NCBI GenBank assembly: GCA_023920165.1
Contig: CP089279.1
Coordinates: forward strand, 310,001-374,000
From: Curvularia clavata
Lineage: Eukaryota
Direction of reading: 5' to 3'
Length of the DNA stretch: 64,000 nt
Made by a program: the position numbers and the translations under genes
Shown here: positions 3,425 through 63,029 of the stretch, piece by piece
How the letters are laid out: every line of letters begins with the position of its first letter
How positions within the stretch are numbered: position 1 is the stretch's first letter
Notes under the pieces: generated by a model
The model's database searches: none
What the model saw: the letters and a program-made list of their open reading frames with translations, nothing else
What the model was told of the DNA's origin: nothing

Positions 3425-4708
3425 ATGAAGTCCCTCGCGCTTCTTGCAACCGTATGTGCGAGCACGGCGTTGGCGGGACGAGAGCCGCTGGCGAGAAAGG
3501 AAGTCCAGAATGCGGTGTTTACGATTGAAGTTGCGCCTGGGGAGACGAGGATGATTAGTGAGGATGAGAGGTGGGAGATTGCTACTGTAAGTCCTCGTCT
3601 GTCCTTCTTCCTGCTAGGTCTGGAGATTAACAGTTTTTGAAAAAAAGGGCGGCGGCTGCGGCAGCCACTTCTTCGACATCAGCGAGACACACGCTGAACC
3701 CCTCGCCGTCAAGCGCGGACCCGCCTACCCGCAACAATTCCTCTACTCGGAAAACGTCCGCCGTCTCTTCCCCAAACTCAGCTGGAACACCATCAAAGCT
3801 AATCTAGAGCGCTACTCTGCTTTCCCCACGCGCTTCTCGGAAACGCAATCTGGTGCCGACGCCGCCCAGTGGCTGGTAGGCCAAGTCCAAGATGTCATTA
3901 CCAAGTCTGGTAAAAGCGGTGTGACGGCGACCGCCTTCAAGCATGCCTCGTGGCCTCAGAACTCAGTCATTGCCCGTATCCAAGGAAAGTCGAACCGCAC
4001 GGTTGTAGTGGGTGCCCATCTCGACTCGATTAACAGTGGCGATCGGCTGCGTGGCCGCGCGCCAGGTGTCGATGATGATGGAAGTGGATCGATGCTTTTG
4101 ATTGAGGCGCTGCGTGTGCTGCTCACTGATGATGCGTTTGCGGGGAAGTCGTCTACGCTGCAGAATACGGTCGAGTTTCATTGGTATGCGGCCGAAGAGG
4201 GTGGATTGAGAGGGAGTCAGGATATATTCACGCAGTATCAGAGAGCTGGAAGGGATATCTGGGCTATGTTGCAGCAGGATATGGTGGGTTATACCAAGGG
4301 TACGCTGAATGCGGGTAAGGAGGAGAGTTTTGGATTGATTACGGATTTTACGGATGGTGTGTTGAATGAGTTTGTGGCGAGGGTCATTGGAGAGGTGAGT
4401 TTTTTTTTCCTTTTCTTTTTCTGTTCTTTATCCTTGGGCAGAATGTTTGCAGAGGCTGACCATGAACCATGTAGTACACCGATATCGCCTATGTCAACAG
4501 CACATGCGGCTATGCGTGCTCCGACCACGGATCCGCCATGCGGAGCGGATACCCCGCTTCGTTTGTGTTTGAATCCGCTTTTGAGTACCGCAATCCGTAT
4601 ATTCATACTGCCAACGATACCATGGACCATATAGACCCGGACCACGTTCTCCAACATGGACAGTTGGTGCTGGGTTATCTGTATGAGTTGGGATTCAGCA
4701 AGGCGTGA
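3425..4708 (+). CDS. Secreted leucine aminopeptidase, peptidase family M28
   Basis: Signal peptide MKSLALLATVCASTALA. Zinc-ligand motifs GAHLDS, APGVDDDGSG, AAEEGGLRGS, QQDM and CSDH. Introns about 3587-3647 and 4395-4473. Confidence 0.9.
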
Positions 4709-11176: not shown

Positions 11177-14100
11177 TCAACTGACACCATGTTCCAATAA
11201 CAGCTTCATACTTCTATTCCAACGTCCACGATCGAAAAGGTCTGGGTGGTGATCTTTCTGTGCCATCTCTGCTGCATGCTGCAGCGCTGTTTTTCCAGAC
11301 GCGTCCTTTGCATCTATCTTAATGCCGACAACATGGAGAAGATAATGCAACGACTCTTTGGTAATAGATCCACTTATCGCAGAACAGTGCAATATCGTCT
11401 TGCCTTGCAAGTCTTTTTGTGTTAGATCGACACCGTGTTCCCTCAGGATCTCCAAAACTTGAACGCTGCATCGCCAAGGTAGAGTGCATAAGTGTCCTAG
11501 GTTTTGTCCGTTTTTGTCAATGAACAAAGAGCTTCCTTTGATAGAAAGCAATTGTTGACATATTTTGACATCTGGTTCACCCCGGGCTTGTTTGAAGTAG
11601 CCCGCCAACGGTGTGTTGCCAGATGCGTCCAACTCTGAACCATCCGCCCCATTGTCGAGCAGCAACCGGATTGTCTCCTGCCGTATTTCACTTTTCGCAG
11701 ATAGCAAGTGGTGGAGCAAGTTTCTACCCCGATTATCCTTCGACGCCACTAGGCTTGGTCTTGTTGTCACAGCCGTTTCTAGAAGAATGTTGATTGTTTC
11801 ATAGTTTCCACTTTGTGCAGCGTAGTGAAGAGCATTGAGCCCCTCATCGTCCGTCAAGGCAGGCTCAACTCCTAAGGAAATTAGAACAGCGACCGCGTCG
11901 TGGTCGCCAGCTCGACTGGCAAGGTGCAGTGCGTTTTGCTGCTTCAAGTTCCTTTCGAACGGATTTGCTCCTCTAGATACTAGCTTCTGGAGTATCGACA
12001 CACTTCCAGGTTGTCTATACTGAATGCAGTGCAAAGGATGCTCATATTGATAGTCTCTGATCGTCAGACTGATCCTAGCATCTGCGAGCAGAGCATCAAG
12101 CACACCTTCGCGATGCGTTGCTATTTTTGCAGAAACTGCATCGATTTCGTCTTCTTCTTCAAAGTCTATGAAGTCCCGAATGCTTTCTATCTTGCAGTCC
12201 GGGTCGGCCCAATCGTCTTGACATATTGGTCCATGCAGGGTTTGACGCAACGCAAGATGGATCGGGGACTCGTTGTATCTGGACAAAGCATTCGGATCAG
12301 CGCCACGCTCTAGGAGGAACTTGGTCATGGATAAATTGCCAGTCAAGGCTGCAAAGTGTAAGGGTGTCAGGCCAGCTGAAAGGCCCGAAATGTCGGACGC
12401 GGATTCCAAACCCGATGATCGGTGAAAGGTGTCGGTCTTTACTGTGTTCCGAGACCTCGACTTTCGATAGACACCGGCATCAATGGACATACCATTGTCA
12501 AGAAGCAATTCTATTATAGATTTGTGGCTGTGCTTGACGCAGTAAAGCAGTGGGGTCATGTTGTTGATATCGGTCGTGTCTGCTGGAGCGCCTCGTGAGA
12601 GCAGAAGGTCGATCAGACTCAGGGTGCAATGCATGCTGTTGATAGCATGATGCAAAACACTCTTTCCCTGGATATCGTGTCGCGAGACATCGGCGCCGTT
12701 CATGAGCAGGAGCTCGACAATAGCTGTATGGTTCTCAGCTGCAGCCGCATGGAGAGCGTTGCCGTATAATCCACCCTGCTTATTAATGTTGGCACCATTA
12801 TCAAGGAGCAGCTGCACTATTGCCTGGTGGCCTTTAGCTGAAGCTGTCTGGAGTGCGTTGTTGTATAATCCACCCTGTTTGTTGATATCGGCACCATTAT
12901 CAAGGAGCAGCTGCACTATTGCCTGGTGGCCTTTAGCTGAAGCTGTCTGGAGTGCGTTGCTGTGTGATCCACCCAGCGCATTGACGTCGGCGCCTGCATT
13001 GAGGAGCAGCTGTACTATTGCTTGGTGGTCTTCAGCTGAAGCTGCCTGCAGCGCGTTGCCGTGTGATCCACCCAGCGCGTTGACGTCGGCGCCTGCATCG
13101 AGCTGCAGCTTCACAATCCTTTTCAAGCCTAACAGGCTTGCATAATACAATGGTAATGGTATGTATTGCAGGCTCCTCTGGAAGTCGGAGTCCCCCCATG
13201 GATATTCGGGATCATGAATTCGAAGCCAGTTCAAATACGCGTCGTTCTTTTCTGAAAGCAGGATTGTCGCCTCTTGAGAGCACCATTCTGCCTGATCCTT
13301 CGTATTTTGAACATGCTGTATCCAGAACCTGGCTGAGTAATCTGCCAGCCTAGATTCTTTTGCATTGTCGTGGCTGAGCATCTTGACACCCTGGAACTGG
13401 AGAAGGTATCCAAGACAACTTCTCGCAATAGCGTCATGGCACACAGTATGTTGCATGCTGTAGCGAGCTGCGGAGCCTGTCTGTATTCTGTCTGAGATGA
13501 GATACTCTTTGACCGAGTAATGTGCAAGCGCCACAATCTGTTTTACTGGATCTTGTCCTCCGCTCTCTTCTGTAGTTATAGTAACCATGCTAGAACAGAT
13601 GCTCAACACATCCAGCGGATCTTCGAGAACCTCATCACAATCGAATCTGGCTTCACCATCCAAATTGACCGCAACGACTTCAGCGACTTCGTCTACTGAT
13701 AGCGGCCGAACTGCAAACGTTAGCCATCGTAGAATAGGAATGGCATATTTCGAATCATCCTCGCTGATTGCGGACAGAATGCGGTCATATGTGTTGTCCA
13801 GCGTTGGTGGAAGCGTTACAAGTGCTCTTCGTAGCGCTGCCCGAGTACGACATTTCCCCAACGTGTCCAGCTGGCAGACGGCCCATCGAAACCTGCAGGT
13901 ACCATCAGTCTTCGGTGTTTAAGCGAACATAAGGCGGTATACGTACATTCCTTGCGCTCCTTTCATAAGAGTAGTCTCGATATCCTGCCTAAGGGCAGGG
14001 TCTTTTTTCCACCTGCTCAGGTCTTTGTCATCATATAGTCGCTGCTGTACGTATTTCTGTATGTCTTTGTCTACTAGTTTACTCTGGAGGCAGATTTTAT

Positions 14101-15232
14101 CCTGTTTGTGTATAAACTTCTCTAAAGAACTCTGTATATCTCGTTCTTTGCGACTCGTTAGGAGCGTGTGTGAATTCTCAAGCTGCCAGGCTGACATCGT
14201 CTCCAGGATGTCCATCAGCTCCGCCCTCCCATAACACTCGTCAAGCGCATCAAATACTATGTAGACGAATGGGAACCCCCGCATCATATGTTGCAGCACT
14301 TCTAAGAGCGCGTGCAGTGAGGGCTGCCGCTGCCCATTGTCGCAAGAAGAAAACAACGTGTCGAGGCTCGCAGGGATTTCAACGCACTGTTGTGAAAGCT
14401 GGCAGATTACGGAGCGCACCATGAGCTCAGCATTTTGCTTCTGTTTATCGTTGAAATCAAAGAAGAAGTATGCGACGACCTTGGCAGGGTCACCTTCGCA
14501 GTGCTGAAGGATATTTTGGAGAATAGCTGAGCTGAGGATAGTTTTGCCACACCCTGGAATGCCATACAACCAAAGGAACGATACCATGCTTTTCTTCCAT
14601 TCGGCATACTGGTCGCTTTCCAGAAACCAAAGCCCAGTGTCGTCTTGGCGTTGCTTAAGCGCTTTTTGGTAGTTCGTAGAAGGATCTGGTGGGGCTAGCC
14701 ACTCGCGTATCTTGATGAGTTTCGCATCTGCGCATTACGATCAGTTGGAGTTACACAGGCCTCTTATCAGTCATTTACCTTTTAGTGGTTCTAAGGTAGA
14801 TGATATGGCAATGCGGTAAAATATTAGCATCTTAAGGTGGCTCCGCAAGATTTTTGTAATGTTTTCGACTTTGTCTTCCCGCAGCAGACTTCCTATGGCC
14901 TTCTTGCTCTTTGACAACCACTTGTCACCGGCACTCGGCAGCGTCTCCGCGATGATAGCTTTTAGTTTCGCTATCTGTTCGTGACAATCACTGACTATCG
15001 ATAGCAGAGCAGCTTCGACTTTGGAATCTGCTGGGTTTGCCTCCAGATTCTGGCAAATTCTCTCTAGTGTGGCGCATAGAACAGGCAGTGCATCGCTGAT
15101 AGGATGAAGAAATTTTGGCCGTTCTCCTACAAGAGAATGGAACTCATTAAGGCGAGAGATGACTTTGGCGGTGAAATCAACGAGCTGAACTATACTGGCG
15201 ACAGCCCCGACAGTAGCGAGACCTTCGGCCAT
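11177..15232 (-). CDS. Fungal NLR-like protein: SesA/HeLo-like N-terminus, NACHT, ankyrin repeats
   Basis: N-terminus MAEGLATVGAVASIVQLVDF. NACHT motifs WLAPPDPSTNY, TGLWFL, GIPGCGKT (Walker A), VFDALDEC (Walker B), LLTSR and GMFRWAVCQL. Many ankyrin repeats follow. Introns 14728-14778 and 13893-13946 join three ORFs in frame. Confidence 0.92.
12761..13110 (-). repeat. 99-bp tandem repeats (~3.5 units) encoding highly similar ankyrin repeats
   Basis: Units start at about 12761, 12860, 12959 and 13058. Units 1 and 2 share an identical stretch ggcaccattatcaaggagcagc...ggagtgcgtt. Confidence 0.9.
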
Positions 15233-15394
15233 TCTGCGTAGCCTGACCTATCCGCACGACCCTGGTGGGCCACAGGAGAGCGAAGCTAAGGTGCTTATAG
15301 ATGGAAATAATAATCCGAGGAAGTAATTTAACTCATAAGGTGCAATAGAAGTGCGCGTAGTGAGGTTTTGTCTGGTGAAGAAAGCGACGACGTT

Positions 15395-40780: not shown

Positions 40781-42452
40781 ATGGCGAAGGTTTTCGATTA
40801 CGCCGAAGGTCCGTCGCAATGATGTTCAACACACCGGTTCCTGAGAGCTAACTTTCAAAACTAGTCGCAAAGCACAATACGGCTGAAAGCTGCTGGGTGA
40901 TCCTCTACGGCAATGTCTACGACGTAACGCGCTTTCTGCCCGAGCACCCTGGCGGCTCCAAAGTTATCCTTCAACTTGCGGGCAAGGACGCGACAGAAGA
41001 GTACGATCCCATCCACCCGCCAGGCATCCTCGAAGAAAACCTCCAGCCTTCCGACAAGCTGGGAACAATCAACCCAGACACTCTGCCAAAGGAGGAGAAA
41101 TCACCACAACAAACAGGCGAAGCTCAGGCAGAAGGACCGGTGGATCTGGACAGTCTTCTGAACCTGGACGAGATAGAAGAGGTGGCGACGAAGCAGATTC
41201 CGTACAAGGCGTGGGCTTATTATTTTTCCGCGAGCGACGATCTACAGAGCAAGTCCTTCAACAACACCGTATACAGAAGCATACTCCTCCGACCACGGGT
41301 TTTCGTCGACTGCACACGTTGTGATACCTCGACATCCTTGATTGGCAACAATGTCAAGCTCCCGATATATGTTTCGCCCGCTGCCATGGCGCGGCTGGCG
41401 CATCCAGACGGCGAGTGGGGAATAGCCCAAGCCTGCGAAAAGTACGGCGCCATGCACCTCATTTCTCAAAACGCGTCCATGACACCCGAGCAAATTGTCG
41501 CCGACGCAAAGCCCGGGCAGGTCTTTGGCTGGCAACTCTATGTTCAAAACGAGCGGCAGAAGAGCGAAGCCATGCTCGCACGCATGAACAAGCTCGACTG
41601 CATCAAGTTCATCTGCCTCACACTCGACGCCCCCGTGCCAGGGAAACGCGAACACGACGAGCGCAGCAAGAACATTGGATCAAATCTCCCTGTACGAGCT
41701 GCAGTGCAGGAATCCTCGAGCGTTAGCAAGACATCGTCCGAGGCGAAAACCCCAACTCAAGCCGCCGAAAAGGAGAAGCCCAAGTCAATGGGTGTAGGCC
41801 AATCCCTCTTCTGGGGCACAGCCGCAGATCTAACATGGCGCTCTACTCTCCCCTGGCTCGCAAAACACACCTCCAAACCCATTGTACTAAAGGGCATTCA
41901 AACGCACGAGGACGCGTACCTAGCTTCCCTCCATGCTCCGCACGTCAAGGCCATCATCCTGTCGAATCATGGTGGCAGAGCGCTAGATACAGCACCGCCG
42001 GCTGTCCACACGCTACTCGAGATTCGCAAGTACTGCCCTGAAGTCTTTGACCGCATCGAGGTCTGGGTCGACGGCGGTATCAAGCGCGGGACCGACGTGG
42101 TCAAAGCGCTGTGTTTGGGCGCAAAGGGCGTGGGGATTGGGCGCGCGGCGTTGTTTGGGCTTGGAGCTGGGGGCAAAGAGGGGGTGGAGAGGGTGCTTGA
42201 GAGTAAGTTTTTTTTTTTCTTTCCATTTGCTTCTTCCCCCGTTCGCTGGGGGGTTTTTTTTTTCTAGAATGAATTTGTTTTGCTAACGCCAGGGTTGTAG
42301 TTCTCAAAGCCGAAACGGAAACTTGTATGCGGCTCTTGGGCGTGGAGAAAATTGAGCAGTTGGGCATGCAGCATATTAATACGAGGGCGGTGGAGAGGGA
42401 TATTTGGGATGGCCCGGTGTTGCAGAGGGGGGACGTGAGGGCGAAATTGTAG
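40781..42452 (+). CDS. Cytochrome b2-like FMN-dependent alpha-hydroxy acid dehydrogenase with C-terminal PTS1
   Basis: Cytochrome b5 domain ([14 protein letters not shown]) plus FMN domain ([23 protein letters not shown]). Introns 40809-40864 and 42203-42300. Ends ...DVRAKL-stop. Confidence 0.9.
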
Positions 42453-44740
42453 GTTTGTGGAAGAAAAGGGCTTTGTGCCAAAAAAAATTCTTGTGTCGAT
42501 GAAAAGGATGAAGTCACGGCTTGGTGTGTAGTTTAATTGTCCATATATTCCTATCTGCGTGACTGACTAGCGAGTGAATGTTCGATATGCGTTGTGCAGT
42601 CTGACTCGATTGGGAAAAGAGGGAGGCGGAAAGTCAACTATTGGCTACTTTTGCTACGTACTGACGAATGAGAGGCACGTGCCGGCGTGATTTCTGAATA
42701 GAAAGCGGCTTTTCTGTTCCTAGGATGTGGATCTACTGTCTTTCTTTGCTTTTCATCTCGCTGGCCTGTGAGACTTTACGAGTAGAGTTGAACTGTTTCA
42801 CGTGGCGGATGTTTTTTCGCGGCCGTTACTGTTGCGATTTGAGTTGTGAATGGGTACTACGGAGAGTGCGCAGATATCCTAGTTGGTTTTTGGTTTTCAT
42901 TTCTCCATCATACATCTTTCGGTGACGAACGCTAATTCATTGTCCTTTTTCATGCGTTTCCTACTTGATGCTATGGATGCGTGTGTCACGTGGGGTTGGC
43001 ACATGAATTAGCTGCCTTTTGACTTCATTCCTCTGTCACACGTCCTTCGGTGACGAAGGCCAATCAATCCGTGGATCTCTTCACGCGTTCGTTCTCTTTG
43101 AACCATTCGACATACTTGAGCTGCAGATGCTGTATCGCGTGCACTTCATTTATCTGGCCCGCAATGCTTCATGGCTGGAGCCAAACTGCTGGTCCGTATA
43201 CGCGTGATGTCTTTCCTAGACCGTTGCTGTTGCCGCCGCTACGTGATGCCGCGGATGAGTGCGGCAGAGAGTTTGCAAATGAACTGGACACCTCCCAATC
43301 CCTCTTCCACACGTACTTATGCATACGCACATGGAAGCCTACTTGTCAATTTGATACGCGTACCCACTACATACTCGTCTGAGAATCCTGCATACAGTTT
43401 CTGTGGGCGAGGTAGGTGCGGAGTTTAGGTTCTGTGTTGCACAAACTACGTGCAACAAAGTCATTTTTTTTTTGGCCCTTACTCGTAATTTGCTCCATGT
43501 GCAGTGGGGTGAGGTGTGACGAAATCTTACGGTAACCTTCAATTAAAGCTTGTTTGCGGCTTACGGTTGATCGTTCGCTTCCAGGGTGGTGTGTTTCATG
43601 ATCAATTGATGATGTGCAGCAGGCTTACATACACAGAGCCAGACGGTTGGGTAGTCCCACAGCGGGACAATGATTTGCATGTGAAATTGCGGGCACGGGT
43701 TGAGTGCAGTGGATACTACTTGGGTCGTGGTTTACGTATGTACATACGTTGCCCGGAAGTTGGAATACGTACATGTGTCTGCGAGTTTCAGAACAATTGG
43801 TCCTTTTTGAACAAAGAAAAACTGTATACTTCTATATGGTATCTTAACAAAAGAAAGAAAGCCCTCTCCGAATAATTCTATGTATAATGCCCACTTGGAG
43901 AACCGCCCGCTGGGCGTTGCCACGAGGCAGAAGGAACAAGTAAACGACGGAGATGAAATGCGCAACCAACCGTCGCACTAATCTCCACCATTCCTTTGCG
44001 AGAACCTCAAACGTACCAACCGCCCTTGCCCCCTTTGTCCTCGCGATTTCACAAATTCCAGCCCGTTGGGCCAAACGGTTCCCAATCAGCCTTGATGGAA
44101 ATTTAACGCCCCAACCAATCAAAATGTGCGCAACACCCACACGCTATGAGGGAGATTCGAAACCGCGGGACAAGCGGGCTCGTTGTTGGCCTCGTTTGAA
44201 TGTATGCAATTCCATGACAACGCGTGCGGCGGTAGCTTTGCATATGCACTCTCTATCTCCTTCCTGCTTGGGGTTTTGCCGCGATCCTGCCGCTGCGCTG
44301 TTGCGTAGAATAGCTCTAACTCCTTGGCGCTTTTCCCATCTCTTACACGCTTGAAAGTCTATAGCGTGGGGTGATTGTTCCTTTTATTTATTTTTCTAAT
44401 TTTTTTGCTGATGGTGCGTCCCGCGCGACGATGATGGATAAGGTTGTTGTGATGAAAAAAACTTTAGCCCTGAAATGAAGCGAAATAAAAGGGGGTGAGT
44501 TTGATGATGATGGTGACCTGTCCTAAGGTCAGTTCATGGTCCGGAGGTAGCCGGGTAACGCCGAGATGATCGGAAAGCACACGCTTCGTATAAAGCGGGG
44601 GAGTGTGACACAGTGTGGCTGTGCTGAAGGATCCTTTGCTTGTTGCTCGAACAATTTGATGCTGCGTACCTTTGATGGAGTTTGACATGGCTCGGCTCGT
44701 CTGAACAGCGCATTCCACCTCTTTTTCGGTCTTGCTGGAT

Positions 44741-44884
44741 TTAATGCTCTGAGTGGATAGCACCTGTGCCCTCACAAATGGTACATTGTTTTGTGCCTGT
44801 TCGTTTGCAGCATGGTCCGCCTTTGCCGTGACATGTGTCGCACTTGACGGTGCCGTTTCCTCTGCACTCGGGGCAGTCCTTCAT
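44741..44884 (-). CDS. 47-aa stand-alone DnaJ-type (CxxCxGxG) zinc-finger microprotein
   Basis: My translation: MKDCPECRGNGTVKCDTCHGKGGPCCKRTGTKQCTICEGTGAIHSEH*. The ATG has A at -3. TATA-like elements lie at 44998-45003 and 45205-45211 on the minus strand. Confidence 0.75.
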   Translation of the reverse strand: MKDCPECRGNGTVKCDTCHGKGGPCCKRTGTKQCTICEGTGAIHSEH

Positions 44885-47800
44885 CTTGGCGTATTTGACC
44901 GGATCGGACGGGCGGGACTGGATAGCCGGAATGGCACAGGAGCGTACGAGGCGACTTTTGAGGGTTGAAAAATACGGAATTCGAGTCCTGGGAGAGGCTT
45001 ATAGACGGTAGATCTGGGAGCTGAATGGAATGAAATGAGCGACAGGAGAGAGTAAGGGGCGCGAGAGAGTTATCAAGATGTCGTTGTTGATCCTGATTTA
45101 GGAAGCAGTGGTCATCATACGAGCAGAACGATGAAGGCGCGCTTTCTGCCTCAAAACAATGCCAGCCTGATTCGCAGCGCTCCCTGTCCAGCGCCGCCCA
45201 AGCCTTTTATACAATTTTGCATGGATTTTTTTTCAGGCCCCGCGCCCACGCGTTGCCCTCTTAGCCAGCACCGTAATCTCACATAGTAAAGCAAGCTCCC
45301 ACGCGCAGCCCCCCCGCGTGCGTGCGCGCCAGCACCGGCGACTATCCGGGCGTCGTCACGATAACCAACCGCCCCCGAGCGTCGCGTGGGCGGGGGTGCG
45401 AGTTACATCGCTGACAAGGGTTATTTGGTTTGACATACAGAGGCACCCAGTTGTAGCGTTTCTGAGTCCCATGTTACCATGTTGGACGTGTGTAGAAGGT
45501 GTGATGTCAATGTGCATGTGTAAGAGAAAAGCAAGTTCAACGAGCCAATTCGCCTTACATACTTCTTAAGCGCCTGTTCTCATTATCGTTCCATAGGTCA
45601 TGTTTCGAATCTTTCACGTGTATCTTTCTCTTTCCCCTCTCCCCTTCTCTGCGTCTGCTTCACGCGCGCGGGGTTGCGAGACAGGGGCTTCCATGATTTT
45701 CCTTGGCTACTAGACAGCCGCTGCTATCGTGACCGACTGCAACGTTGCCGACTAACAAACGTTGCTGGCTGAGCCGCCACACCCGGACTGCCTTTCCCTG
45801 TCCAATTGCAGTCAACTCTCTAGCCCAGAACGTCAGAATTGCGGTTACATGGCCGCTCGTAACGCACGCAGCAAACTCCAAGGAACTCGGGTCCAGCCGT
45901 TGCGGATAGCTTCTAGCGCGTTCGATGTCAAGAGTGCGCTGCTACAGACAACACACCATGCGCTCTTCGCACCCTACACCCGACGTCATCTGAAACACTG
46001 AAGAAAACATCCGACAAGGCTCCAAGGCAGACTGATCTGACTTAATTTTGGGGGGCAACTCGGCTCTTACTTGTCCAGAAAGGGGAATGCTTGTTCTTGA
46101 ACGCTGACTGGTCTAAATAGAAGCATGGGCCTACGTATGCCTGGCTTACTACAAGGCACAGCATGTCACAAGCACGTGGCAGCGGTCTTGCGAGTAAGAT
46201 GAGGCGATGTGGTGTAAGTACATATATGTAGGGCTGAGAGATTGGCTGGCGCGCCTTGTTTCATTGCTGGGTGGGGTCCAAGTACGTAAGCCGATCATGC
46301 CGCTGGACCAAAACATGTACATCTACATAGTACCACTCACTGCTTTGTCCTTGGCCGTCAAACCCAAATCCTAGGATCAGTCGAAGTATAACAATGAGCC
46401 ACGACTGAGCACCTTCCAAGACTCACGACCGTGCATACGAATTGTATTCATACGTGGCTACGAGGGGTTCCCTTGCTCTCGCTCGTCTCACCTTGGCCGA
46501 CCGCGACCGTTGGAGAGCCTGGTGGCTAGTTCCGTGCGCCACTTTTTTTGTTTTCACTGGAAATAAGTCCTCTTTTTTGCTCATCAACATACGACTTTGA
46601 CATTTACGTAGTCTGCCTTACTCGGGTGTGCGCTTGCTTCGCCCCTTGATCATATCTAATTTAATGCGAAGCAGACCATGCCCACAGCATGGGTATGAGA
46701 GCATCGTCGGAGTCGACTGTTCTCAACAACTCATTGGAAACTCTACAGTGAGTCGAGAACTTATCTAGTGCTGACATGAGTAGAAGAAAACAAGCAAGAG
46801 ATTGAATTGCTGAGGTATGACAAGGCGTCTAGAACCACAATGAGTCATGGATAGTGATGAGGATGCCATGCTTTGAAGAAGTTACTTTAGGGCAATCAAC
46901 GTTGTAAGACAATAATTCCACCGAGAATACCTTGCTGAGTGAACCTGTTGAGCGAGATCAAGTATAAAAGCCTCCATGACTCCACATTTGTTACCTCATG
47001 GAATAGGAGAAGAAAGGTGAAGATGGCTGGAACAGTTCAAAGTCTGGGGAGGCAGAAGGCATCTACAGTCGTACTTTGATCTATGAGGGTACTACTTCTA
47101 CTCTTTGAACTTGGTAGAAACGACTGCAAGGCATTTTTTCTCGCACTCGTCCTGGCGTGATGACGAAAGAGTGCATGAGACTTTCCCTTTGTCCTTGAGG
47201 GTGTACAATGGAGCTTTTTACTCACCTCTAGTGTTAGAAAGACTGATGCAGGTCTTTATTTGGACTGAATCAGATACTTTAGTCGCATATAGCCTTCGAG
47301 GTGCAGTTCCAAGTGTTAGACTGTCAGTCTGATTTAGATAGCGCAAGAATAGACTAGAGTGGACCACTTGTAAACAGTCATATATTCACGGGGCGAATTG
47401 CAAGCAAGCCTCTCTAGCGATTACCGAGTTTTATTGCCCTATTCTCTCTCTTGCTTACTGACGAGAGCAAGACTAGGGTGAACAGGGCTGGATTGGCCTA
47501 AACTGGGCTAGACTCTGATACCGAGCGGCTGCAAAATTCTCTCTTCAATTGTCAAAATAGCGTACGGTGTTTGAGAAAATTTATAGTTTAAAGCATGTGA
47601 CACTTGTCTGCACTTAAGAAGATCCGCAACCGAAAAACAAATATTGGATTATCTTATTGCACTAATACAGACATGCAGGGATACAAAACGTGTAGGTGTC
47701 ACCCATATTGGGATCTATAGATGCTTATAAAGCAGAACAATACTTTTCTCCTTTCTAATCTTCTATCTCCGGTTCGCCTACAGCAACTAAAAATTTGGAT

Positions 47801-60294: not shown

Positions 60295-61551
60295 CTAGTA
60301 AAGTGGCAAGTAGCCATATACCTTCTTGAGCTGTTCCCAGGTAATGTACTCTCCATACATGAGCTTTGACACCCTCTTAGCAGCCCAAAGGCTTCCCTTC
60401 GGCGAAGCGATGGACTGGTGGAACATAATTTCGGGGCTCTCAGAAGCCATGTAGGCGGAAAGTGAAGTGAAACCAAGCGTTTGCTCCACAATTTCCTGCT
60501 TTTGACCCCCGGACTGCGTTTCTAGATGCTCCTTCTCTTCTTCTTTCTCCTTCTCCTTCTCCCTGATGAAGTTTATGACAAGCTTCTTGAACTCGACGAT
60601 CTGCCGACTTCTCTCGTCAGACCGCCCAGAGATATTGACCAAATTTGGGCAGAACGACAATTGCTCAAGAGGAGCCGCCTGAGCTCTGCTCCAGTCAATG
60701 ACTCCAGTAAGATTATATTCGTCGTCGAAGAGAAGGTTCCTGTGATGAAAATCGAGATGACAAAGTGGAAATGGGCCACGAACTCTATCTTCAACGATAG
60801 TGCGAGTTAGAGCTGATTTCAAGACCCAGCATGCTGTCAGCTGATCCGCGTCATCCGGATACAAATCCATGATCAGTCGATTCTGCCCCTGACGTTGGTT
60901 GTAAAAGTATTCCAGCGAGGTTTCCAAAGGACCCGGCGAATGATGCCACACCGCCATGGGAATGATCGTGACTGGCTGGTCTAGTGTATCCCCACACCAA
61001 ATCCGCCCGATACGGCTGAAAGTGAGGTTTTGGAGCTCTGCGAAGACGTTTGCCAATTGTTTGGCTACCTTGGCTTGGTATTGCGGAAGTGTTCTTGCCA
61101 GCCCATTGTTGAGCTTGTGACCGCTCATGTACTCCATCAAAACGTATGGGTACCCAAATGGATCATCTGTCTTGACCTCAAATCCATATATACGAGGTAC
61201 TGGAATGGTTGTGCGTTGGCGGACAAGGTTCATCGTAGCTATTTCGCTGAGCAAGGAGGTCTTGGTATGACTGTTGACAGTGCGATACGGGATCCTGGCG
61301 ATCCAACGGATTCCGTCGGAGAACGCGACTTCAAAAACAAGGTTCTCATAGCCAGTTGCAAATCGATCGAGATCGATACTGCAGTTGATATCGGGAGGCA
61401 AATCAGTCTGATCTTTGTACCGCGCGTCTACCGCACACTTCTTGAGGTGCTGGAAATTTGCTGAATCCAGAACAGTCTTGACTAGCCCGTACTTTTCAGA
61501 CTTTGGAGGTATGTCAGTGAAGCCTGACCAATCCTCACTGGGAGCTGTCAT
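60295..61551 (-). CDS. APH/choline-kinase-like phosphotransferase family protein
   Basis: Motifs FSDGIRWIARIP, SEIATM..V...TTIPVPRIY, YVLMEYMSG, LCHLDFHHRNLLFD and GVIDW. Intronless. Confidence 0.88.
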   Translation of the reverse strand: MTAPSEDWSGFTDIPPKSEKYGLVKTVLDSANFQHLKKCAVDARYKDQTDLPPDINCSIDLDRFATGYENLVFEVAFSDGIRWIARIPYRTVNSHTKTSLLSEIATMNLVRQRTTIPVPRIYGFEVKTDDPFGYPYVLMEYMSGHKLNNGLARTLPQYQAKVAKQLANVFAELQNLTFSRIGRIWCGDTLDQPVTIIPMAVWHHSPGPLETSLEYFYNQRQGQNRLIMDLYPDDADQLTACWVLKSALTRTIVEDRVRGPFPLCHLDFHHRNLLFDDEYNLTGVIDWSRAQAAPLEQLSFCPNLVNISGRSDERSRQIVEFKKLVINFIREKEKEKEEEKEHLETQSGGQKQEIVEQTLGFTSLSAYMASESPEIMFHQSIASPKGSLWAAKRVSKLMYGEYITWEQLKKVYGYLPLY

Positions 61552-61967
61552 TGTTCTCGGTGCTGGAGTGACTCGAATGTTTGTTTCAATGTGAAACCCA
61601 AGGTTTGGACACCCCGAACAGATACGAGAGTGGTGAGGGAAGCTGACGAGCGGTGGTGGAGGAGAAGAATATAAAGGGCTGTGACAAGTAATTGTTTACA
61701 GCGAGCAACCAGGCCGAAGGTGATTGGATCTGGGTAGATGGCGGTAGCCTGGGTCGTTTGCGCGCTAGGCTAATAGCGGTATAACTGGGCTAACAAAGAC
61801 GCTGGGGTTGGTGTCATTTCTTACACGCAAACACAATCACAAACGCGCATCTGGCAAGATTCATATCACGCGCGCAACTCGTCAAAAAGATCTGCTGCCT
61901 TCACCTTTTTGAGCCACGGTAGACCACGGAATCCGCGATTCATACGCCATCATCTGCTACACGCCTC

Positions 61968-63029
61968 ATGTCGCTCCTCGAACTTCCTCCCGAGATCCTC
62001 ATTACGATCTTTGAATATGTCGGTTCACAATCTTTTCGCTCCGAATTGACCCGCCTCATGGTCTGTAAGCAGTGGTATGCGTTTGCTCGTACCGCATACT
62101 TCCATGACCTCCGGATTACTACAAAGATACTACGACGGTTACTGGCTTCTCCATATGCGGAAACGAACCTGGCTCGAATTCAAAAGAACGCGGTCAGAAT
62201 GGAGTTGGAATTTCAAGGATTTGAAGACTGGGACTCGTTTCACGCCTCTAGTTATGATTTACCTGAGGTCAGCTGGCATGTCACTTACGGTCGCGTAGAG
62301 CGGTTAGCCTGGACACCTGAATTCAACAATGATCTGCTCCGTCTTGCTAAAACGGTCAAAAAGTCACAAAAGCTGCGCTGCCTGCGTATACAAGCCATCA
62401 CCGAACTGCACGAAAACACACTGCTTGAAGAACGCCGCCACTACCTTTTCACATGGGCAATACGCCCATTCCTGTCAAAAAATGCCCTGACTACTTTAGA
62501 CCTGGATCTAGTCGGTACTGAGCTTGTGCAAGGCGGGAAAGATGGCCAAGAATTCCATGCGTGCGTGAGTATAGCCGCGCTTCTTACAACACTACTACGT
62601 TTGAGACTACGCATGCGCCGTATCTGCGCCAATGTTTTGAATACTGGAGGACCTGACAAGAAGCTTCGTTTGAACGAGGTAATTATCAACCTCAGTCTCG
62701 CCAACGAGTCACCTCTAGTGAGCAGCTTCTCGCATGCTAAGTGCTGTAATACTTCTTCATCTGGGCTCCCTCAATTGCAACATGCCTTAGAAGAGCAGGC
62801 GGGAGTTCTTGTGACACAGATGGAGAACCCTATGATGGTGAGAATACTGCGCCAGGAAGGACGTATGGGTCGAAAAATGCAGGCATTCGATGTCTTGACT
62901 GGAAAGACAATTGTTTTCGAGGATGGTACGGAGTGGGATGGTGAGGGCAAAATCATCGAAGAAAAGGTGTCAGATGGAGAGTCGGGGGAGTCAGAGATTT
63001 CAGAACTTTCCTCGGATAGCGATGTATAG
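61968..63029 (+). CDS. F-box-like domain protein
   Basis: N-terminal LLELPPEILITIFEYV...LMVCKQW, followed by LRR-like segments and an acidic tail. Intronless 353-aa ORF. Confidence 0.75.
   Translation: MSLLELPPEILITIFEYVGSQSFRSELTRLMVCKQWYAFARTAYFHDLRITTKILRRLLASPYAETNLARIQKNAVRMELEFQGFEDWDSFHASSYDLPEVSWHVTYGRVERLAWTPEFNNDLLRLAKTVKKSQKLRCLRIQAITELHENTLLEERRHYLFTWAIRPFLSKNALTTLDLDLVGTELVQGGKDGQEFHACVSIAALLTTLLRLRLRMRRICANVLNTGGPDKKLRLNEVIINLSLANESPLVSSFSHAKCCNTSSSGLPQLQHALEEQAGVLVTQMENPMMVRILRQEGRMGRKMQAFDVLTGKTIVFEDGTEWDGEGKIIEEKVSDGESGESEISELSSDSDV

Follow-up and report, generated by a model that had tools for sequence, protein, structure and literature searches.

A stand-alone gene for a putative DnaJ-type zinc-finger microprotein in Curvularia clavata and related fungi

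Results

The ORF and its neighbours

The window analysed here is a 64,000-nucleotide stretch of the Curvularia clavata genome (GCA_023920165.1, contig CP089279.1, positions 310,001 to 374,000). An earlier note on this DNA had described a 47-codon open reading frame (ORF) with four cysteine-pair motifs, a good start context and neither a J domain nor a signal peptide. Our analysis bears this description out: the ORF has the position, strand, length and motifs reported (Table 1), translation gives eight cysteines (MKDCPECRGNGTVKCDTCHGKGGPCCKRTGTKQCTICEGTGAIHSEH), and A lies at -3. No J domain was found in the peptide by Pfam search, nor an HPD, and no upstream exon that could supply one was found. 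The peptide contains no hydrophobic leader or targeting signal (GRAVY -0.79), and nothing precedes its first motif. It is 17% cysteine, hydrophilic, net basic (pI 8.2-8.5) and without aromatic residues. Three of the four motifs are canonical CxxCxGxG and the third along the chain is a CC variant. In six frames the whole window (127,996 positions) holds only four CxxCxGxG matches, three of them inside this ORF. A genome search with the peptide showed that the gene is single-copy in the 32.4 Mb genome.

Genes around the ORF are of the fungal housekeeping kind. On one side of it lie a Far11-type gene (N1221/DUF3402) and a cytochrome b2-like gene, and on the other a fungal rhodopsin-domain gene about 7.5 kb off. 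The term gene desert, applied earlier to this interval, fits only in part: conserved non-coding DNA surrounds the gene (approximately 2 kb), and the interval also contains a second RNA contig and the remnant of a repeat. The latter is a dispersed short repeat (~47309-47518) that matches 10 further places in the genome (70-76% identity) and may derive from a small transposon. Elsewhere the window carries ordinary variable fungal genes, namely an ankyrin-repeat gene with a winged-helix part (11177-15247) and, near the window end, APH-like phosphotransferase and F-box genes (60295-63029).

The cytochrome b2-like gene was found 1.6-4.3 kb upstream on the same strand in 14 of 22 related loci, including all 12 with at least 3.2 kb of upstream sequence. 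Relative to the cytochrome b2-like gene, the C. clavata segment at ~43800-46000, which comprises the gene with its promoter and 3' flank, is inverted in comparison with these 14 loci; the breakpoints could not be located. Downstream neighbours vary among loci. Because the Far11-type gene shows linkage as well, this arrangement may reflect simple synteny and not shared function. A 50-nt opposite-strand cytochrome b2 match in one locus (L012) was discounted.

Table 1. Positions of features in the window (X1, X6, X9 and X12 are RNA runs; L002, L004 and L006 are orthologous loci)
Feature	Position	Strand	Evidence
Cytochrome b2-like gene (Cyt-b5 + FMN_dh); tandem in relatives, convergent here	40852..42452	plus	Pfam, locus comparison
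Span under RNA contigs	X1 43816..45413; X6 43838-45394	minus	Strand inferred from GT..AG intron orientation
Conserved non-coding 3' region	44024..44626	minus	Profile of 11 orthologous flanks, built without the window (E 3e-13)
152-nt GT..AG intron in 3' UTR, branch CTGAC	44518..44669	minus	Skip in contigs X1, X6, X9
CrzA/Crz1-type candidate site GCACAGCCAC, inside 3' UTR intron	44615..44624	minus	Motif identity from PMC3704241 and PMC2873923
Coding sequence, 47 aa, four Cys pairs	44741..44884	minus	ORF listing, translation, orthologues, omega 0.037
6-codon upstream ORF in leader, not conserved	45098..45118	minus	ORF listing, orthologue comparison
Conserved block ~50 nt below TATA box, likely main transcription start	45148..45160	minus	Orthologue flanks; X9/X12 contig ends a weak hint only
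TATA box, positional match to GGAAATTATATAAAG of orthologues	45204..45213	minus	Flank alignment
GC-rich promoter block, common to L002, L004, L006	45283..45314	minus	Flank comparison
Distal conserved blocks CCGGnTGTGGCGGC, TCTGACGT, ACGCGCTAGAAG	45773..45921	minus	Flank comparison

Transcript structure

Four of 24 listed RNA runs, from four studies, were compared with window positions 43000-46500. All four consist of contigs, one recorded as RNA and three presumed to be RNA, and contigs give neither expression levels nor true ends. Three of the four runs (X1, X6 and X9) contain a form spliced in the 3' UTR, where the intron starts 71 nt past the stop codon; X1 and X6 contain the unspliced form in addition. 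Because the 152-nt skip has GT..AG ends on the minus strand, the spliced RNA lies on the strand of the ORF. No splice joint between the ORF and anything upstream was present in the four runs. Contigs of X9 and X12 stop at 45150 and 45157, ~55 nt below the TATA box, which is a weak hint of the start. Those of X1 and X6 extend 200 nt beyond the TATA box, possibly because of an upstream start or antisense RNA. Run X9 also holds contigs of a second, related organism (window 44765-44991) with indels in the leader; of the four coding changes listed, two are synonymous and two fall in codon 17.

Of the 22 loci, 13 were examined along with the window (L002 was too short and eight near-duplicates were left out), and all 14 sequences have a donor, branch and acceptor after the stop codon, with read support for the window's intron only. 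A strict form of the pattern occurs in 12 of 15 sequences; its frequency was 1.1% in Markov controls, and four of 222 intergenic tiles contained it. The donor of L018 is GC, and L018:5116-5209 and 4560-4670 hold the candidate GC-AG 3' UTR intron and an apparent 5' UTR intron. In L023 (189-390) a 65-nt intron, absent from the other 21 loci, lies within the coding sequence, and its removal restores the full eight-cysteine peptide. This is further evidence for a real eukaryotic gene.

We considered whether the ORF could itself be an upstream ORF of some other main ORF and rejected this reading: the longest other ORF in the spliced RNA has 57 aa and none is common to other loci. Rfam searches for a structured RNA or riboswitch returned three tRNAs only in 15 loci and nothing in window 43000-47000. 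Folding z-scores for the UTRs and intron scatter round zero, and the consensus fold reaches -6 kcal/mol over 540 columns. A second RNA contig (X1, X6) covers 45602-46500 and beyond (to ~47090 if unspliced), over the distal conserved upstream blocks; it has no ORF common to other loci and is possibly a divergent or enhancer-type non-coding RNA.

Conserved flanks and a Crz1-type site

The TATA-like box and GC-rich block mentioned in the earlier note are both present and are common to orthologues. A profile of 12 upstream flanks, built without the window, matches window 44906-45804 (E 5e-19). Conserved blocks span from about -1300 to +850, beyond which shared words of at least 12 letters vanish. 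Since no RNA structure explains this conservation, the blocks are more likely protein-binding sites. By k-mer enrichment alone, the best 7-mer occurred in 13 of 14 upstream regions (control maxima 8-10) and 9 of 14 downstream regions (6-8), not clearly above Markov controls. Patterns for PacC, CreA, STRE, MRE and the yeast CDRE had no uniform position in the flanks. TGACGT words, which we take to be CRE-like, occur in the upstream region of 12 of 15 sequences.

Within the 3' UTR intron, a site resembling published CrzA/Crz1 motifs was found. CACAGCCAC is a possible CrzA element of Aspergillus fumigatus (PMC3704241), and CAC[AT]GCC is the most enriched MoCRZ1 motif (PMC2873923). The latter pattern lies inside 10 of 14 introns and is missing in four, including the GC-AG intron of L018; background tiles carry it in 95 of 1402 cases. 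The 10-mer occurs 248 times in the genome versus 143 times for its reversed control. The intronic enrichment is a lead only, as the counts come from related sequences and the motif was picked with the alignment already in view. The site also lies downstream of the ORF. The pattern suggests that calcium/calcineurin-Crz1 may be one input to expression, for which we judge the odds to be even.

A further 3' block, followed by a TCATTGG word, is strongly retained in L004 (6480-6700, CATGAGATTATACCCAAGGAGGCAATTTCC) and in the matching parts of L006, L008, L010, L011, L012, L014 and L023. On the opposite strand it reads like a CCAAT box plus a TATA-like site; in the window it is eroded.

An orthologous family under purifying selection

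The ORF had been called unannotated. This is true of its function; as a gene model, however, its Pyrenophora tritici-repentis orthologue is in NCBI as a 49-aa hypothetical protein (73%), the one protein among one candidate in a search for proteins of near length. An HMMER search of 1.84 billion representatives gave 38 matches, of which seven end in the compact finger; most of the other 31 are longer repeat proteins picked up through the motif. Alignment searches added models from Bipolaris maydis (94%) and Plenodomus tracheiphilus (61%). Among the named records, one model is exact and two have false N-termini. A metagenome scan yielded 25 loci from 78 candidates. Three were dropped as long repeat proteins (L024-L026) and 22 belong to the family, representing 16 distinct coding strings and 13 distinct peptides of 45-49 aa. 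Scans of prokaryotes (4 loci of 10 candidates) and viruses (1 of 35) gave no family member, and L033 and L037, when translated, proved to be long repeat proteins. ESM Atlas top scores of 0.85-0.86 are leads only, and one 59-aa cluster there is labelled Mucoromycota from a single record. All named family records are, presumably, Pleosporales. The unnamed loci are probably of the same order or class, because their cytochrome b2-like neighbours are 79-92% identical to that of the window. This range comes from scans needing close motif matches, and small ORFs are poorly annotated in fungi.

Selection on the peptide is strong. Mean pS and pN among 15 sequences are 0.69 and 0.17, and pairwise dN/dS has a median of 0.12 with all values below 1 (66 of 105 pairs correctable; 39 saturated pairs dropped). 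A codon model of 16 sequences gave omega 0.037 (lnL -1229.7 vs -1427.6 at omega 1), and identities at the three codon positions are 0.82, 0.86 and 0.50. The earlier note had proposed looking for homologues with dN/dS below 1 and had named a lack of homologues and transcription as grounds for rejection; such homologues and spliced RNA both exist, and an ORF lacking them is thus ruled out.

Seven cysteines never vary among the 16 coding sequences, and in the window the eighth is shifted, not lost. Its spacing is 3-8-3-7-1-8-3 compared to a family norm of 3-8-3-5/7-3-8-3. The third motif is a CxxC of the form CxxCxxxG in 15 of 16 sequences and G-P-C-C in the window, as it is in the Bipolaris record; motifs 1, 2 and 4 are canonical or nearly so. 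Judged from the alignment, the PCC motif is a lineage shift of the normal CxxC. The count stays at eight because one cysteine was lost and another gained two places on, from which we infer selection for the four ligands of a second metal site. Other positions are also held: T12, K27 and an acidic residue at 38 in all 16 sequences, and K14 in 15, with R in the remaining one. Many members have a His-x-x-His tail.

The same start Met (ATG) with a purine at -3 is present in all 22 loci. Acceptor-like sites are lacking from the 80 nt before the start in every locus, and an in-frame ATG further up occurs in L010 only, above its TATA-like box. Taken together with the lack of an upstream joint in the RNA runs, this indicates a gene in its own right and not an exon of a larger one, and the ORF is almost certainly a real stand-alone gene. 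The possibility that it is a fragment or an exon, raised earlier, accordingly fails. Eight database proteins of 118-243 aa, two of them NCBI models, do carry the finger at the chain end. Their N-terminal extensions are unlike one another beyond close kin, several read through the TATA box, and in related loci they are broken by stops and frameshifts. On this comparison the longer versions are best taken as translated leader DNA, not a domain.

Relationship to known zinc-finger proteins

The likeness to DnaJ and BSD2 proteins proposed in the earlier note stands at the level of the motif; all Pfam scores are under cut-off and no fold match was found. The window peptide gave only sub-threshold matches to BSD2_CRD, zf-AtTam37 and DnaJ_CXXCXGXG: PF25436 (BSD2) scored 21.7 bits against a cut-off of 27 (15.7 bits in the genome scan), and PF00684 scored 17.6 against 32.7, short of a class A J-protein. 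All nine members of a family alignment match BSD2_CRD and DnaJ_CXXCXGXG weakly (best BSD2 E 3e-5). The closest solved structure by sequence is the E. coli DnaJ cysteine-rich domain 1EXK (E 2e-6). AlphaFold2 models are of low confidence and disagree with each other (pLDDT 67.3 from the single sequence, 55.7 from nine rows), and the first had no match in Foldseek/PDB or among 48,161 chains at Z 2. A homodimer prediction with four zinc ions scored 0.01 and, as its controls did not fold, counts neither for nor against such an assembly. The DnaJ cysteine-rich domain is a hairpin in which motifs 1 and 4 and motifs 2 and 3 each bind one zinc. The 47-aa peptide has its motifs in the same order, with minimal loops, and by analogy probably folds as a two-zinc hairpin.

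Class A J-proteins (PF00684; 1EXK) share the motif pattern and the presumed two-zinc hairpin; however, they possess a J domain, a G/F region and C-terminal domains, none of which is present here. The four class A zinc-finger loci of this genome lie elsewhere, have cysteine gaps of 13-14 and 19-24 residues versus 8 and 5-7 in the family, and were not retrieved by the peptide at E 1. With plastid BSD2/ZnJ2 proteins (PF25436; PDB 6EKB) the peptide shares four CxxCxGxG-type motifs and the lack of a J domain, both features of a J-less DnaJ-like zinc finger, and its best Pfam likeness is to them. In contrast to them, the fungal family has nothing outside the finger, where BSD2/ZnJ2 carry extra sequence, lacks a transit peptide, and has a 5-7 residue turn between motifs 2 and 3. 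Plastid targeting and a Rubisco client, which mark BSD2 proper, do not apply to it, since neighbouring genes and named orthologues identify the genome as fungal.

Anti-TRAP of Bacillus (53 aa, PF15777) is likewise a stand-alone microprotein built on CXXCXGXG motifs (PMC2896485). It has two motifs and a C-terminal helix and forms trimers, whereas the fungal proteins have four motifs and at most seven residues after the last, too few for that helix; five of nine members match PF15777 weakly and the window peptide not at E 0.1. Cysimiditide precursors (bioRxiv 10.1101/2024.10.02.616296) and Haloferax C(P)XCG microproteins are also tiny stand-alone Cys4 zinc hairpins, both prokaryotic. Cysimiditides have two motifs flanking Asp-Gly and an adjacent PIMT-like methyltransferase, unlike the four motifs and conserved cytochrome b2-like neighbour seen here; a weak methyltransferase match was found near L004 only. 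Going by these comparisons, the 47-aa protein falls outside the J-proteins, BSD2 proper, anti-TRAP and the cysimiditides.

Discussion

Our best reading, to which we give a probability of roughly 45%, is that the peptide could serve as a stress-regulated binding module for a specific partner. The zinc hairpin would form a rigid module that docks on one partner protein and, independently of Hsp70, would hold, assemble or inhibit it, much like BSD2/ZnJ2 or anti-TRAP. Oxidation of the cysteines may modulate this binding. The conserved DNA suggests that expression would be tightly controlled, with calcium/calcineurin-Crz1 as one candidate input. As there is no targeting signal, the peptide presumably stays in the cytosol or nucleus. 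The fixed polar non-ligand positions are more than a metal sink needs; they could be purely structural. There are precedents for such a role: J-less ZnJ2 acts as a holdase (PMC5818400), and anti-TRAP, a J-less CXXCXGXG protein, inhibits its partner (PMC2896485). Other findings speak against it: ZnJ2 did not need its cysteines for holding (PMC5818400), BSD2/ZnJ2 carry additional sequence beside the finger, and five of 14 purified Haloferax C(P)XCG microproteins were without zinc (PMC11241148).

A more specific version can be formulated and is, in our view, speculative. In Pleosporales-type fungi, the gene would then encode an undescribed microprotein module under calcineurin/Crz1 control, and no smaller free DnaJ-type double zinc hairpin would be known from a eukaryote. 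An enhancer in the gene's own 3' UTR intron would account for part of this control. The module would connect calcium or redox stress with one particular partner, perhaps by inhibiting it in an anti-TRAP-like way or by acting as an Hsp70-independent holdase.

The peptide might instead be a metallothionein-like metal buffer or zinc donor that stores zinc, copper or cadmium and releases it on demand. We consider this unlikely. Its small size, cysteine content and hydrophilic, aromatic-free composition resemble those of fungal metallothioneins, the cysteine total is kept at eight despite one moving, and the His-x-x-His tail is common among members. Metallothioneins, however, have more cysteines, clustered in CxC/CC patterns, and differ in this from the fixed CxxCxGxG spacing and conserved non-ligand residues of the family. 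Strict glycine spacing and the low omega fit a folded finger, none of nine members matches a metallothionein Pfam family at E 0.1, and the metal-response-element pattern has no shared flank position.

A thiol redox protein, either a small disulfide reductase or a zinc-release switch for oxidative stress, is a somewhat weaker candidate. Disulfide reduction in vitro is documented for BSD2 and four further DnaJ-like zinc-finger proteins of plants (PMC7217058), and the upstream TGACGT words would suit such a role, but ZnJ2 had neither reductase nor oxidase activity (PMC5818400). We regard as doubtful, too, and slightly more so, a knuckle that binds nucleic acid or the ribosome, or a decoy in competition with the zinc-finger region in the cell's own class A J-proteins. 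The basic charge of the peptide and the four class A loci as possible targets would favor it; retroviral knuckles, however, are matched only at E >0.1, and the cysteine spacing is unlike that of all four J-protein fingers, none of which the peptide retrieved.

It is very improbable that the locus is mainly regulatory DNA or RNA (an enhancer block, an antisense promoter or a decay-controlled transcript) and the peptide secondary. The long conserved flanks, the retained intron, the promoter-like words on the opposite strand downstream and the X1 and X6 contigs reaching past the TATA box are what such a locus might show, but selection acts at the codon level, and neither a conserved second ORF nor an RNA structure was found. 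The exon-junction decay rule concerns the distance of an intron from the stop codon, with 50 nt as the limit. Here that distance is below 50 nt in 7 of 14 loci; the rule is therefore not observed, which is at odds with a decay-controlled transcript. That the ORF is a remnant or terminal exon of some larger or decayed gene, as the longer database proteins ending in the finger might suggest, is largely refuted by their dissimilar, broken extensions across the TATA box, the common start Met and the lack of an upstream joint.

No description of the family turned up in literature listings, which include few subscription papers, on the motif in fungi, filamentous-fungal microproteins, three locus tags, Dothideomycete small ORFs and Bipolaris Crz1 data, in keeping with the earlier remark that no fungal microprotein of this form was recognized. 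The available part of a review of fungal microproteins makes no mention of zinc, cysteine or DnaJ (PMC11413187). The present analysis adds to the earlier note a 3' UTR intron predicted in 14 of 14 sequences, a Crz1-type site in 10 of 14, the ~2 kb flank, the cytochrome b2-like linkage and the inversion in C. clavata. On present sequence evidence this appears to be an undescribed fungal microprotein family that belongs to a known protein type and whose gene layout is conserved and unusual.

In conclusion, most annotations of a large plant-associated fungal order either lack this gene or model it wrongly. J-less DnaJ-type zinc fingers have been described from plastids and prokaryotes. A bare 47-aa finger would be a minimal system for learning what the finger does alone, whether it holds, reduces, buffers or inhibits, and the kept 3' UTR intron with its Crz1-type site would make it possible to test directly whether a fungal stress gene is controlled from a downstream intron.
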